In this document: positions 56,434 through 59,246 of the stretch, one piece after another | Position numbering within the stretch: position 1 is the first letter of the stretch | Layout: the number at the start of each line of letters is the position of its first letter | Translations under genes and position numbers: made by a program | Source: Planctomycetota bacterium | Lineage (GTDB): Bacteria; Planctomycetota; JAMOSO01 | Direction of reading: 5' to 3' | Assembly (NCBI GenBank): GCA_027063065.1 | Contig: JAMOSO010000007.1 | Coordinates: 1,290-65,289, forward strand | DNA length: 64,000 nucleotides | Notes under the pieces: model-generated | The model's input: only the letters and a program-made list of their open reading frames with translations | The model's database searches: none | What the model was told of the DNA's origin: nothing

Positions 56434-57393
56434 ATGAAGATTATAAGCCTTAGCTACAATACTTTTTTAGAGATAATACGTCAGCCATTTTTCAGTTTAA
56501 TTCTGATAAGTACGGCTGCGATTATCGCTTTGTCACCCGCTTTTACTTTTTTTACTTTGATGGATTCTACAAAGTTGGTGCAAGATATGTCATTGGCAAA
56601 TATGTTGTTGGCAGGTTTGTTTTTAGCTATTTTTTCTGCTGGGGATTCATTGGTTAGAGAATTACAACACCATACAGTGCTTACGTTATTGTCTAAGCCT
56701 ATGGGCAGAAGTAGTTTTGTAATAGGTAAATTTTTGGGTATTTTGGCTTCACAGGCTGTGAGTTTTTATGTGTTGACAGTTGTAAGTTTATTGGTGGTTA
56801 AGTTTGGCACGCAAGATGCAAATTATATAATATTAGAAACGCAATGTATGATATTGCTTGTAATTGCTTTTTTATTGACGCTTATTATAGCTGCTACCAT
56901 GAATTTTTTAGCCAATAAAGTGTTTTTATCTACTGCGGTGATAGTTGCTATTCCGATGTTTACATTGGCTTTGATAGGCGGGGCTTTATTGGATCATAAT
57001 TGGAGTTTTATTGTTTTTGGATCTGATATTAAATGGGATATTGCATTAGCGGGGGCATTAGCTTTTTGTGCCTGTGCAATTTTGTCTGCCGTAGCCATTA
57101 CTTTGGCAACTAGATGCAATTTAACCTTGACGGCATTAGGTACTATTTTAATCTTTTTTATTGGATTAAGTGTTAGCTTTGTAACCAGTCATGTAATTTC
57201 TGTGTCTTGGATGTCAAAGTTTATGATGGCTGTTGTTCCTGATTTTCAAATGTTTTGGGTTGCCGATGCTCTTAATTTAGGTTCTCATATACCTTTTAAT
57301 TATTTATTATTGTCAGCTAGTTATGCTTTAAATTGTATCGTTGCCATTTTAGCATTGGGCTGTTGGCTTTTTTCTTGTACTGAGGTTAGTTAA
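56434..57393 (+). CDS. polytopic membrane protein (ABC-2 permease-like)
   Basis: 319 aa with 6-8 TM helices. Its stop overlaps the next start (TAATG). Confidence 0.5.
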   Translation: MKIISLSYNTFLEIIRQPFFSLILISTAAIIALSPAFTFFTLMDSTKLVQDMSLANMLLAGLFLAIFSAGDSLVRELQHHTVLTLLSKPMGRSSFVIGKFLGILASQAVSFYVLTVVSLLVVKFGTQDANYIILETQCMILLVIAFLLTLIIAATMNFLANKVFLSTAVIVAIPMFTLALIGGALLDHNWSFIVFGSDIKWDIALAGALAFCACAILSAVAITLATRCNLTLTALGTILIFFIGLSVSFVTSHVISVSWMSKFMMAVVPDFQMFWVADALNLGSHIPFNYLLLSASYALNCIVAILALGCWLFSCTEVS

Positions 57394-59246
57394 TGCTTGA
57401 ATTACAACCAGATCAATCACTTGTTTCTCATAAGCGCGCTTTAGCTATGTCTGCTTTTGGTCTATTTTTTACTATTATATTAGCAGTTGGTTTTTTTGTA
57501 TGTGATATGCAAGTACCAAACGTGGGTACAGAGGCTACATCATGGATATTAATAGTGCTTGCTTGTTCTTGGTTATATCCATTGTTGGAGCTTTATTTAG
57601 AAACACGAGTGGATAGAGAGGCTATTGATATTGAATATTTAAAAAGTCAAAGTAGCCAAGGTAACTTATTTGACGATGCTGATGATTATTCTGCTGCTGC
57701 TAGGTTAAAATTAGTGAAGTTTTGGTTAGTTCCAATATTTGCTTTATGTATGGGCGTGCTTTCTTTAGTTTTGTCCTTTTATGTGTGGCACTTAAAAACA
57801 GACAAAAATATAATTATAGATCAAAATTCATTGGTAATTACAGGTTTTATACAAGCTTTCATAGGTTTTATTTTATTTATTTTTGCTAGATTTTTGGCAG
57901 GCTTAGCATCTCAATCTGGGTATGGTATTTTAAGATCTCCTGCTGGGTTAATGATGTTATCTGCTTGGGCTGCATTATTATCGGCAATTGCTAGAGCAGG
58001 TAATTATATGAATTGGCCTATCGGATCTGTTGCGCTTGGATATATATGTGCAGTAGTTCTAGGTTTATATGCTTTAGAAACCTTGGGTGGTGTTGTATTG
58101 CATATTTATAGTAATCAAAAACAAACTAGGCGACCTCCGCAGGATTCACGTTTATTGTTTATTTTGGCTTCTCCGAGCCGTATTGCTAAAAGTATAGGAG
58201 ATGTCTTAGATTATCAATTTGGGTTTGAAATTTCAAAAAGTACCATGTATCGTGCGTTTGAAAAGGGAATAGCACCATTTTTGATAGCGCAAATTATTAT
58301 ATTATGGCTGTGTAGTTCTATTACTATTATTGATGCTGGATATGTAGGTTTTGTAGAGCGTTTTGGCAAACGGGTTAGCAAAATACCGCTAGAGGCAGGT
58401 TTGCATTTTAATTTACCTTGGCCAATTGACAGTATACGCAAAGTTAATGTTGGCAAGGTGTATGCTATGCAATTGGGTTTATTGAATGAAAAACAAGAAA
58501 TTAGAATATGGACTACAGAACATGGTCAAGCTGAAGAGTCTATGGTGGTTGCGTCTGCAGAATCAGTAGGTGATGAAGTCCCTGTAAATTTATTGGCAAC
58601 CAGTTTTGCTTTAATTTATAAAATTCGGCCAAACAGGGCTGTTGTATGGGCATATAATTATGCCAATGCAAAGGATTTATTTGAAAGTAGGGCTAAAGCA
58701 GCTTTGACAAGGTATTTGACAACGGTTGATTTTTTTAAAGTGATGGGAGAGGGAAGGCGTAAGGAAGCAAAGCGTTTAACTACAAAATTAGAGGCTATTG
58801 CAAATTCGATGGGTGTTGATTTAGCTTATGCAGGTTTTGTAGGTGTGCATCCACCTGTTGAGGTTGCAGAAAGTTATGAAGCTGTAGTTAAGGCAGATGA
58901 AGCCAAGCGGGCAAGGTTGCTACAGGCAGAATCGACTAAAAATAAGTTAAGTACATCTGCGGGTTATGAGGCAAAGGTTATCGAGTTAAATGCTCAGGGT
59001 CAGGCTGCTGGTATTGTGGCATTAGCTAAAGGTGATGCTGGTCGTTTTGGTTCACAATTAATAGGATATAAAGAGGCTCCAAAATTATATAAAATTCGTA
59101 GGCGACTAGAGATGCTAAAAGTAGCCATGACAAAAAGCAGAAAATATATAGTTCCAGAAGGAAAAGATAGAGTAGATATTTTAAATTTAGAAGAAAAATT
59201 AAGAGCTGATATTACAGATTTAGACTTAAATAGTTTAGCGAACTAG
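57393..59246 (+). CDS. SPFH/Band-7 protein with polytopic N-terminal membrane domain
   Basis: 617 aa. The N-terminal roughly 300 aa have about seven hydrophobic helices. The C-terminus is HflK/C-like SPFH: 'GFVERFGKRV...GLHFNLPWPIDSIRKV'. Confidence 0.65.
   Translation: MLELQPDQSLVSHKRALAMSAFGLFFTIILAVGFFVCDMQVPNVGTEATSWILIVLACSWLYPLLELYLETRVDREAIDIEYLKSQSSQGNLFDDADDYSAAARLKLVKFWLVPIFALCMGVLSLVLSFYVWHLKTDKNIIIDQNSLVITGFIQAFIGFILFIFARFLAGLASQSGYGILRSPAGLMMLSAWAALLSAIARAGNYMNWPIGSVALGYICAVVLGLYALETLGGVVLHIYSNQKQTRRPPQDSRLLFILASPSRIAKSIGDVLDYQFGFEISKSTMYRAFEKGIAPFLIAQIIILWLCSSITIIDAGYVGFVERFGKRVSKIPLEAGLHFNLPWPIDSIRKVNVGKVYAMQLGLLNEKQEIRIWTTEHGQAEESMVVASAESVGDEVPVNLLATSFALIYKIRPNRAVVWAYNYANAKDLFESRAKAALTRYLTTVDFFKVMGEGRRKEAKRLTTKLEAIANSMGVDLAYAGFVGVHPPVEVAESYEAVVKADEAKRARLLQAESTKNKLSTSAGYEAKVIELNAQGQAAGIVALAKGDAGRFGSQLIGYKEAPKLYKIRRRLEMLKVAMTKSRKYIVPEGKDRVDILNLEEKLRADITDLDLNSLAN

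Follow-up and report, generated by a model that had tools for sequence, protein, structure and literature searches.

A seven-helix SPFH protein with a CDF-like N-terminal membrane domain, encoded in a conserved transporter gene cluster of Planctomycetota and Verrucomicrobiota

The closest described counterparts of the protein analysed here are HflK and HflC, which form the FtsH-modulating cage of E. coli (PDB 7vhp, 7wi3, 9cz2). The cages of stomatin, prohibitin, flotillin and erlin share the same SPFH fold, and SPFH assemblies of this kind associate with channels and transporters; their anchor is a hairpin or one helix, and their clients are separate proteins. An example is PDB entry 9zd2, the description of which names aquaporin 1 in complex with endogenous human stomatin. 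For SPFH cages in general (HflK/C, stomatin, prohibitin, flotillin), the enclosed content and the choice of clients are still debated. Two further systems are relevant for comparison. The CDF transporters (YiiP/FieF, ZnT/SLC30; PF01545) have a six-helix fold with the N-in/C-in topology. In the mycobacterial PacL/CtpC "metal efflux platforms" (effluxosomes), a small scaffold of the DUF1490 type, PacL, clusters and stabilises a P1B ATPase in membrane foci, independently of flotillin (PMC9374683, PMC13043812).

The window analysed in this work is a stretch of 64,000 nucleotides from a Planctomycetota bacterium. The ORF at positions 57393..59246 is a genuine seven-helix SPFH protein and a founding-type member of its family. 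In the initial annotation it had been described as a HflK-type SPFH core preceded by a polytopic membrane domain of ~300 aa; to this description are added here the CDF-like character of the N-terminal domain (N-domain), the identity of helix 7 as the ordinary SPFH anchor, and a conserved cluster of SPFH paralogs and transporters. In our assessment, which is one of moderate confidence, this real seven-helix SPFH protein most likely belongs to a hetero-oligomeric HflK/C-like cage in which a degenerate CDF module works together with the co-encoded transporters.

Membrane helices and the HflK-type core

The gene and its parts are located as follows.

57393..59246, plus strand: long SPFH gene (ATG start, 617 aa), encoding a CDF-like six-helix domain, linker, helix 7, SPFH domain, coiled coil and C-terminal strands
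57393..58112, plus strand: N-terminal six-helix membrane domain with a predicted CDF/SLC30-like fold (aa 1-240)
58113..58268, plus strand: conserved cytoplasmic linker with two short helices (aa 241-292)
58269..58331, plus strand: helix 7, the HflK-type anchor directly N-terminal to the SPFH domain (aa ~293-313; hydropathy peak 295-313, model helix 284-308)
58326..58934, plus strand: SPFH / Band 7 domain (aa 312-514; Pfam PF01145, E = 1e-13)
58857..59186, plus strand: long C-terminal helices (aa 489-580) and two short strands (aa 584-598), from the model secondary structure and the phmmer alignment to HflK

The Kyte-Doolittle profile of the window protein shows peaks at about 19-37, 51-69, 110-128, 147-165, 210-236 and 295-313, and a further conserved peak (188-205) is found when the hydropathy is averaged over 46 homologs. 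Taken together, these peaks define six helices in the N-domain and a seventh directly before the SPFH domain. The same helices are present with high confidence in the AlphaFold2 models (pLDDT of 82 for the full-length protein; pLDDT of 87.4 and pTM of 0.84 for the N-domain). Hydropathy, family conservation and structure prediction thus all give seven helices, in agreement with the "about seven" of the initial annotation, and the case of a single TM helix, named there as contrary evidence, is not what was found. In respect to the orientation in the membrane, the predicted cytoplasmic loops carry in total 15.4 K+R residues versus 2.6 in the periplasmic loops. The linker (aa 241-292) contains on average ~6.9 K+R, which indicates its cytoplasmic position. 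The topology of the N-domain is N-in/C-in, helix 7 is the usual HflK anchor, and the SPFH domain is predicted, from the positive-inside charge count, to be periplasmic.

The HflK-type character of the core, also proposed in the initial annotation, is borne out by the family matches. Band_7 is recognized in aa 312-514 with 52.2 bits (Pfam cut-off 23.6), and all 46 aligned relatives match it too. The top NCBIfam match of the 617-aa protein is hflK (TIGR01933; 88.1 bits, below the equivalog cut-off of 159.4), and among PDB sequences it matches E. coli HflK best (E = 1.6e-13), with aa 418-604 aligned by phmmer to HflK residues 172-360. HflK is likewise the best fold match of the SPFH part (Foldseek, 7vhq_E, E = 1.6e-11), so that for aa ~310-604 HflK is the best match both by sequence and by fold. 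In the AlphaFold2 model the C-terminal helices span residues 489-561 and 563-580, and together with the strands they match the wall and cap elements of HflK-type cages. The long protein resembles HflK/HflC in its N-in start, the anchor helix before a periplasmic SPFH domain, the long C-terminal helices and the terminal strands; it differs in having six extra helices and a conserved cytoplasmic linker before the anchor. In public databases these genes are named only "SPFH domain-containing protein", "HflK" or "hypothetical protein".

The N-terminal domain compared with CDF transporters

In the structural models, aa 1-240 form a six-helix bundle with the fold of the CDF (YiiP, ZnT/SLC30) transmembrane domain. 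Foldseek searches with the N-domain rank ZnT3, SLC30A10, YiiP, ZnT1 and ZnT7 at the top, with TM-scores of up to 0.52 and all E-values to CDF structures above 1e-3. Matches to Pfam Cation_efflux (PF01545) are obtained for 8 of the 46 relatives, all below the cut-off of 26.6 bits (the best are 26.1 and 25.9 bits, E ~ 9e-6), and in every match with inspected coordinates the register is consistent, with helices 4-6 falling on profile positions ~98-198; the window protein itself shows no Cation_efflux match in Pfam. The hhalign alignment to E. coli YiiP (the sequence used is identical to that of 2qfi) is collinear at a probability of 5%, and at this low confidence it places the G/S pair at the start of helix 2 of the family on YiiP G35-S36, and the acidic residue at the cytoplasmic end of helix 6 on D207. 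No CDF was found with the family profile among the PDB sequences, nor any member of the CDF superfamily among 1.84 billion representatives; phmmer searches of the PDB with the two most CDF-like relatives returned HflK only, and the fetched loci contained no CDF genes usable for profile building. The sequence homology of the N-domain to CDFs is not established.

The tetrahedral site of YiiP and the ZnTs is formed by helices 2 and 5. In the alignment of 123 members of the long SPFH family, no conserved D, E or H is present in either of these helices, and the positions aligned with the YiiP site are occupied by L/F/Q/H, G and S/G. The canonical CDF metal-transport ligands are thus not conserved in the N-domain. 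A second difference concerns the cytoplasmic C-terminal (metallochaperone-like) domain of CDFs, which is absent; helix 6 is followed instead by the 50-aa linker, helix 7 and the SPFH domain. The invariant residues in the 123 members are E76, F93, E229, S252, R253 and YQFGF. The latter belongs to the linker motif DYQFGF (Y274-Q-F-G-F278), and S252 and R253 are also located in the linker, for which the models show two helices (residues 253-259 and 261-276). The window protein diverges from the rest of the family, having YSNQ where 97% of the members have YRPR. Of the invariant residues, only E229, in helix 6, lies within the membrane in a buried position, and its presence could mean that the N-domain still binds or moves an ion.

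It may be asked, then, whether the N-domain is an active cation/proton transporter, a non-canonical CDF operating via E229 and the neighbouring polar residues, which the SPFH cage would gate or cluster. Stomatins, which regulate ion channels, provide a precedent. The CDF-like fold with its correct N-in/C-in topology, the invariance of E229, the acidic residue (D or E) at position 237 in about 90% of the members, and the frequent location of the gene next to that of a metal-pumping P1B ATPase are all consistent with such an activity. On the other hand, the helix 2/5 site has no conserved counterpart, the CDF cytoplasmic domain that is missing here is the regulatory and dimerising one, and CDFs are not retrieved by the family profile. 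On balance we regard an active transporter as unlikely, and prefer to describe the N-domain as a degenerate CDF-like module attached to a cage subunit.

The gene cluster and its spread

The genes that surround the long SPFH gene in the window are the following.

56434..57393, plus strand: gene A, a 319-aa polytopic ABC-2-type permease-like protein (ABC2_membrane_2, 32.6 bits vs 27.2; 7-8 hydrophobic helices)
59254..60150, plus strand: S2, an HflC-like SPFH paralog of 298 aa (Band_7, 102.8 bits; one hydrophobic helix, aa 6-24)
60128..61195, plus strand: S3, an HflK-like SPFH paralog of 355 aa (Band_7, 58.8 bits; one helix, aa 29-47)
61164..63104, plus strand: P, a P1B-type heavy-metal P-type ATPase of 646 aa (TIGR01525, 504.8 bits; E1-E2_ATPase and Hydrolase; CPC motif, Cys/His-rich N-terminus)
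63097..64000, plus strand: T, an ABC transporter ATPase of the DrrA/GldA/NodI type, incomplete as it runs off the window end

The genes overlap or abut. Gene A ends in a stop codon that shares bases with the ATG of the long SPFH gene (TAATG), and the latter gene is translationally coupled to that of the ABC-2-type permease. No convincing plus-strand terminator was detected inside the cluster (the only terminator-like site on this strand lies within the ATPase gene), and the scan for promoters and terminators gave no excess over shuffled sequence and no site that was informative. The ABC ATPase scores 208.9 bits with NCBIfam drrA (below the cut-off of 312.45) and 189.9 bits with GldA.

The arrangement was compared in 82 loci of other genomes. 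The ortholog of gene A adjoins the long SPFH gene, on either strand, in 80 of them; S2 is present in 79 and S3 in 76. The P1B ATPase adjoins in 64 loci, placed either after the SPFH genes or ahead of gene A, and its motifs are conserved in 60 cluster-linked orthologs. About one locus in five lacks it beside the cluster, so that the link to metals is not obligatory. An ortholog of the ABC ATPase follows in 60/82 loci, and after it the second permease (B) and protein X, which is a large periplasmic protein. The exact gene order A / long SPFH / S2 / S3 / (P) / T / B / X is found in 33/82, most of the deviations being contig ends. An eight-gene cluster with an ABC-2 exporter, a P1B ATPase and three SPFH paralogs (K-like, C-like, K-like) is conserved across Planctomycetota and Verrucomicrobiota, and no further conserved neighbour families (e.g. 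regulators) were found around the 82 loci beyond these eight.

The cluster also bears on a simpler reading, in which the long protein is an HflK ortholog with an enlarged anchor that modulates FtsH together with its HflC-like neighbour, the transporters being coincidental or FtsH substrates. As in the hflK/hflC pair, the gene lies beside an HflC-like partner, which just reaches the hflC equivalog cut-off (TIGR01932; 136.3 vs 134.4 bits), and HflK is the top family and PDB match of the long protein. However, the hflK score of the latter (88 bits vs the cut-off of 159) is below the equivalog level, as is that of S3 (TIGR01933, 111 bits), and the SPFH paralogs are three, not two. A scan of window ORFs, which covered the cluster genes and the ten largest ORFs upstream, found neither ftsH nor hflX. 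Around the 82 loci, too, the ABC-2 and P1B genes are conserved but these two families are not. The N-domain, moreover, shows strong conservation of its own, including invariant motifs. An FtsH-modulating HflK ortholog is accordingly improbable, more so than an active transporter, and we prefer a cage that works with the co-encoded transporters.

The family is large. Full-length homologs number more than 120; they are 610-850 aa long and align over 85-99% of the query. At least ~590 matches in species-representative genomes were confirmed by tblastn; the window's own locus was not one of these, an exact 47-mer had no match in metagenome_contigs, and the Tex protein has a best identity of only 66%, to mixed phyla. 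The profile search of the 1.84 billion representatives gave 1210 clusters at 50% identity (E ≤ 1e-3); in the best 150 of the 1210 clusters the N-domain always occupies residues ~1-300, and the proteins are mostly of 630-850 aa. The architecture had been called unusual in the initial annotation. This is correct in comparison with the characterised HflK/C, stomatin, flotillin and prohibitin proteins; as a statement of rarity it does not stand: the long SPFH family comprises about 1210 clusters and is standard in Planctomycetota and Verrucomicrobiota. In 81 of the 82 loci, from independent assemblies and two phyla, the N-domain and the SPFH domain are encoded in a single ORF, and in the lone exception the ORF is cut by the contig end. 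Stand-alone N-domain proteins were also considered and rejected: of the two short "N-domain only" entries, both of which were checked, one is a contig-end fragment, and the other results from a frameshift in a C6 homopolymer inside helix 7.

An artefact, either two adjacent genes joined by a frameshift or mis-called ORF (the former foreseen in the initial annotation as a possible refutation) or chance hydrophobic stretches in AT-rich sequence, can be dismissed as extremely improbable, since the single-ORF fusion is conserved across hundreds of genomes, the helices and motifs are conserved, and the models are confident. Nothing was found that speaks for an artefact; the one metagenomic relative that appears as two ORFs is itself the C6-run frameshift.

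A putative efflux microdomain

We infer the function of the cage and its transporters from synteny and fold. That the SPFH part of the long protein forms a cage is suggested by its top sequence and fold match to HflK, by the long helices and C-terminal strands, and by the HflC-like and HflK-like neighbours. On the periplasmic side of the cytoplasmic membrane, the three SPFH paralogs would together build a hetero-oligomeric cage of the HflK/C type. To the patch of membrane that this cage encloses, the long subunit would contribute degenerate CDF-like modules, probably without transport activity and arranged as a ring or a cluster. With these modules the cage may have its own platform for docking or regulating the co-encoded P1B ATPase and ABC-2 exporter. 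The outcome would be an efflux microdomain that is hard-wired and plausibly deals with transition metals or envelope stress. A stronger form of the proposal, in which the CDF-bearing cage subunit recruits, corrals or allosterically couples the P1B ATPase and the ABC-2 exporter in a hard-wired SPFH-transporter supercomplex, is put forward as a tentative idea.

The comparison with the known systems shows what would be particular to such an assembly. With respect to HflK/HflC, there are three paralogs instead of two, and the genes conserved nearby are those of an ABC-2 exporter and a P1B ATPase, with no linkage to ftsH or hflX. In contrast to the stomatin-type cages, the SPFH polypeptide itself contains a transporter-like domain, and its operon also encodes the candidate clients. 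In the case of PacL/CtpC, the likeness (a scaffold and a P1B ATPase in one operon) would be a functional resemblance only, as PacL is not an SPFH protein.

For the open debate on SPFH cages, the family offers a covalent fusion of an SPFH subunit to what appears to be a transporter-derived membrane domain, while the conserved operon names the likely clients, namely the P1B ATPase and the ABC-2 exporter; client specificity thus becomes directly testable in cultivable Planctomycetes or Verrucomicrobia. In the literature searched on SPFH proteins (with Planctomycetes and ABC transporters, with CDF, and with polytopic architectures), no description was found. A further contribution of the family is an example of what is, by its predicted fold, a CDF transmembrane domain devoid of the metal site and reused as a structural module. 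If the supercomplex is real, it would represent an "effluxosome" of Planctomycetota and Verrucomicrobiota, and a natural Rosetta-stone fusion for SPFH cages built around specific transporters.

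Architecture and topology of the long SPFH protein

The open reading frame at 57393..59246 (+) comprises 617 open codons from an ATG start, which shares bases with the stop codon of gene A just upstream (TAATG). The Band_7/SPFH domain occupies aa 312-514 (52.2 bits against a Pfam cut-off of 23.6). The top NCBIfam model for the protein is hflK (88 bits, below the equivalog cut-off of 159), and among solved structures E. coli HflK is the closest in sequence (E = 1.6e-13, aa 418-604). Judged by its sequence, the C-terminal half is an HflK-type SPFH protein; the best fold matches of this part are the HflK/C, prohibitin, stomatin, erlin and flotillin cages. 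Family members are annotated in the databases as 'SPFH domain-containing protein', 'HflK' or 'hypothetical protein'.

Strong Kyte-Doolittle hydropathy peaks of the window protein lie at residues ~19-37, 51-69, 110-128, 147-165, 210-236 and 295-313, and an extra conserved peak (188-205) appears in the mean over 46 homologs, which together give six helices in the first 240 residues (the N-domain) and a seventh abutting the SPFH domain. The same helices are found with high confidence in the AlphaFold2 model (whole-protein pLDDT 82; for aa 1-292 modeled alone, pLDDT 87.4 and pTM 0.84). The initial annotation, which had placed about seven helices before an HflK/C-type SPFH core, was right in this respect, as hydropathy, the homolog average and AlphaFold2 agree. 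A linker of 50 aa, which forms two short helices, joins helix 6 to helix 7, and the SPFH domain comes next. Among 123 non-redundant members the mean number of Lys and Arg residues is 15.4 for the N-terminus and loops 2-3, 4-5 and 6-7, and 2.6 for loops 1-2, 3-4 and 5-6; the protein is therefore N-in, with a cytoplasmic linker and a periplasmic SPFH domain. This topology is consistent with those of both HflK and the cation diffusion facilitators (CDFs; N-in, C-in).

Extent of the fused family

A word-indexed search gave full-length relatives in Planctomycetota (Phycisphaerae, Sedimentisphaerales, Brocadiia) and Verrucomicrobiota; there are more than 120 of them, 610-850 aa long, with 24-32% identity and 85-99% query coverage. 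The nearest relative of the window protein is only 30-32% identical. In a scan with one genome per species for the N-domain motif [LIV][DN]YQFGF[EKQ][VI], 590 of the 600 matches listed were confirmed by tblastn, and the best 80 loci belong nearly all to the same two phyla. Searched exhaustively with the family profile, a library of 1.84 billion representatives gave 1210 clusters at E <= 1e-3; in the 150 best-scoring of these the N-domain is always at residues ~1-300 of proteins mostly 630-850 aa long.

In 82 non-duplicate loci, for which ORFs were called and scored with the window proteins, the N-domain and the SPFH domain lie within one ORF in 81, the exception being cut by a contig end. The suspicion that a frameshift had joined two genes thus fails, and the fusion is neither an artefact nor rare. 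Of two short entries with the N-domain only, one proved to be a fragment at a contig end; in the other (metagenomic locus L086, 99..2386), a frameshift at a C6 homopolymer inside helix 7 divides the relative into ORFs of 292 and 473 aa. This split reflects either an error in sequencing or a pseudogene and does not represent a naturally unfused protein.

Fold and conserved residues of the N-domain

The N-domain of the window protein is recognised by structure comparison, unlike in Pfam and NCBIfam searches, where no family was found. With Foldseek, an independent method, its top matches are ZnT3, SLC30A10, YiiP, ZnT1 and ZnT7 (TM-scores of at most 0.52 and E-values of 0.009-0.4, not significant alone), and the N-terminal part of the full-length model yields the same CDF matches. 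Pfam Cation_efflux matches occur in 8 of 46 relatives, the highest scores (26.1 and 25.9 bits, E ~ 9e-6) not reaching the cut-off of 26.6; in every match with coordinates inspected, helices 4-6 correspond to profile positions ~98-198. The family profile found no CDF among PDB sequences and did not retrieve the CDF superfamily from the 1.84-billion-representative library. Alignment of the family with E. coli YiiP by hhalign is collinear helix by helix, at a probability of only 5%. The structure matches, taken with the failed sequence tests, therefore indicate a CDF-like fold and not membership of the CDF family; the N-domain is probably a remote CDF homolog.

Invariant in the 123 members are E76 (on the cytoplasmic extension of helix 2), F93, E229 (in helix 6), S252, R253 and Y274-Q-F-G-F278, while P114, R181, the YRPR motif at 239-242 and D/E at 237 are near-invariant. 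In the CDFs YiiP and ZnT, helices 2 and 5 supply the transport site with its four metal ligands; in the 123 members neither helix conserves an Asp, Glu or His at any position. By the hhalign register, which is of low confidence, YiiP D45, D49 and D157 are opposite L/F/Q/H, G and S/G, whereas G35-S36 and D207 are opposite a family G/S pair and D/E, respectively. The CDF cytoplasmic domain is absent from the long SPFH protein. A less probable, rival reading makes the N-domain an active non-canonical transporter using E229: the invariance of this residue fits, and the canonical ligand positions are lost.

Where 97% of the 123 relatives have YRPR, at the end of helix 6 that faces the cytoplasm, the window protein carries YSNQ (aa 239-242, 58107..58118). 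It is a divergent member of the family, from a poorly sampled lineage.

Gene cluster and proposed function

Genes of the cluster in the window and, for B and X, in related loci
56434..57393, +, A: ABC-2-type permease-like protein, 319 aa (Pfam search)
57393..59246, +, long SPFH protein, 617 aa (ORF and Pfam Band_7)
59254..60150, +, S2: HflC-like SPFH protein (hflC, 136.3 bits; cut-off 134.4)
60128..61195, +, S3: HflK-like SPFH protein (111 bits)
61164..63104, +, P: P1B heavy-metal ATPase (TIGR01525, 505 bits)
63097..window end, +, T: DrrA/GldA/NodI-type ABC ATPase, incomplete (translation and family match)
Relatives, after T, B: second ABC-2-like permease, 460-600 aa
Relatives, last gene, X: 500-750 aa, one N-terminal helix and a large domain (19806..21359 in locus L001, 17155..19161 in L003)

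From 56434 on the genes overlap or abut, and no convincing plus-strand terminator lies within the cluster, the sole terminator-like site on this strand being inside the ATPase gene. In relatives T is followed by B and then X, the large domain of which has no Pfam or NCBIfam match; X is a conserved component of the system. The dominant order, A / long SPFH / S2 / S3 / (P) / T / B / X, is exact in 33 of the 82 loci; P lies upstream of A in another 9 and is absent in 7, and the remaining deviations are mostly contig ends. P is found in 64 loci, and the SPFH trio is kept in 76-79. Three consecutive SPFH genes are in themselves unusual. All-against-all clustering of the loci gave no further conserved neighbour family.

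The P1B ATPase is short (646 aa), and its N-terminus is rich in Cys and His (CCNAS...DSCDEHDGHDH). It also has two membrane motifs, CPCAFILATPTAM and, in the last helix, LHNIGSxxVxFNSARL, both of them kept in 60 cluster-linked orthologs. The last-helix motif matches neither the classical signature of CopA (MxxSS) nor that of ZntA (DxG).

Upstream of the cluster, on the opposite strand (52055..55675, -), are ORFs of 414 and 543 aa, the latter with a long acidic low-complexity stretch (EEVVEDNIEVE...) and then a repeat-rich region. Elsewhere in the window (source genome 33% G+C), a 645-aa ORF (7797..9734, -) shows an odd combination of a Tim44-like domain and a weak TerB/DUF533-like C-terminus, and a Tex family protein (36468..38579, +) has matches across unrelated phyla, its best database relative being only 66% identical.

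Beyond the architecture, fold, topology, ligand loss and conserved cluster established here, we infer a function. On the model of the solved cages (HflK/C, prohibitin, stomatin, erlin, flotillin), the K-like, C-like, K-like trio would co-assemble into an HflK/C-type cage, and the long subunit would bring degenerate CDF-like modules into the enclosed membrane. A plausible role is that of an efflux microdomain, in which the cage would cooperate with the P1B ATPase and the ABC-2 exporter encoded beside it. A functional precedent is the mycobacterial PacL/CtpC 'metal efflux platform', in which a scaffold stabilises a P1B ATPase from the same operon, although the PacL scaffold is non-SPFH and flotillin-independent (PMC9374683). 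Less probably, the long SPFH protein is an ordinary HflK that modulates FtsH and whose anchor has been enlarged; ftsH is absent from the window ORFs scanned (the ten largest upstream and the cluster genes), and the conserved neighbours include transporter genes.

No description of the architecture or the cluster was found in full texts that treat SPFH proteins together with Planctomycetes and ABC transporters, with cation diffusion facilitators, or with domain architecture and Verrucomicrobia, and a 2009 survey of prokaryotic SPFH subfamilies mentions N-terminal hydrophobic stretches only. The protein is best classed as an SPFH/HflK-like protein, encoded in a conserved operon, whose transporter-derived domain had gone unrecognised. 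A specialist would not expect the CDF-like module or its hard-wired transporter setting, and the proposal is directly testable.
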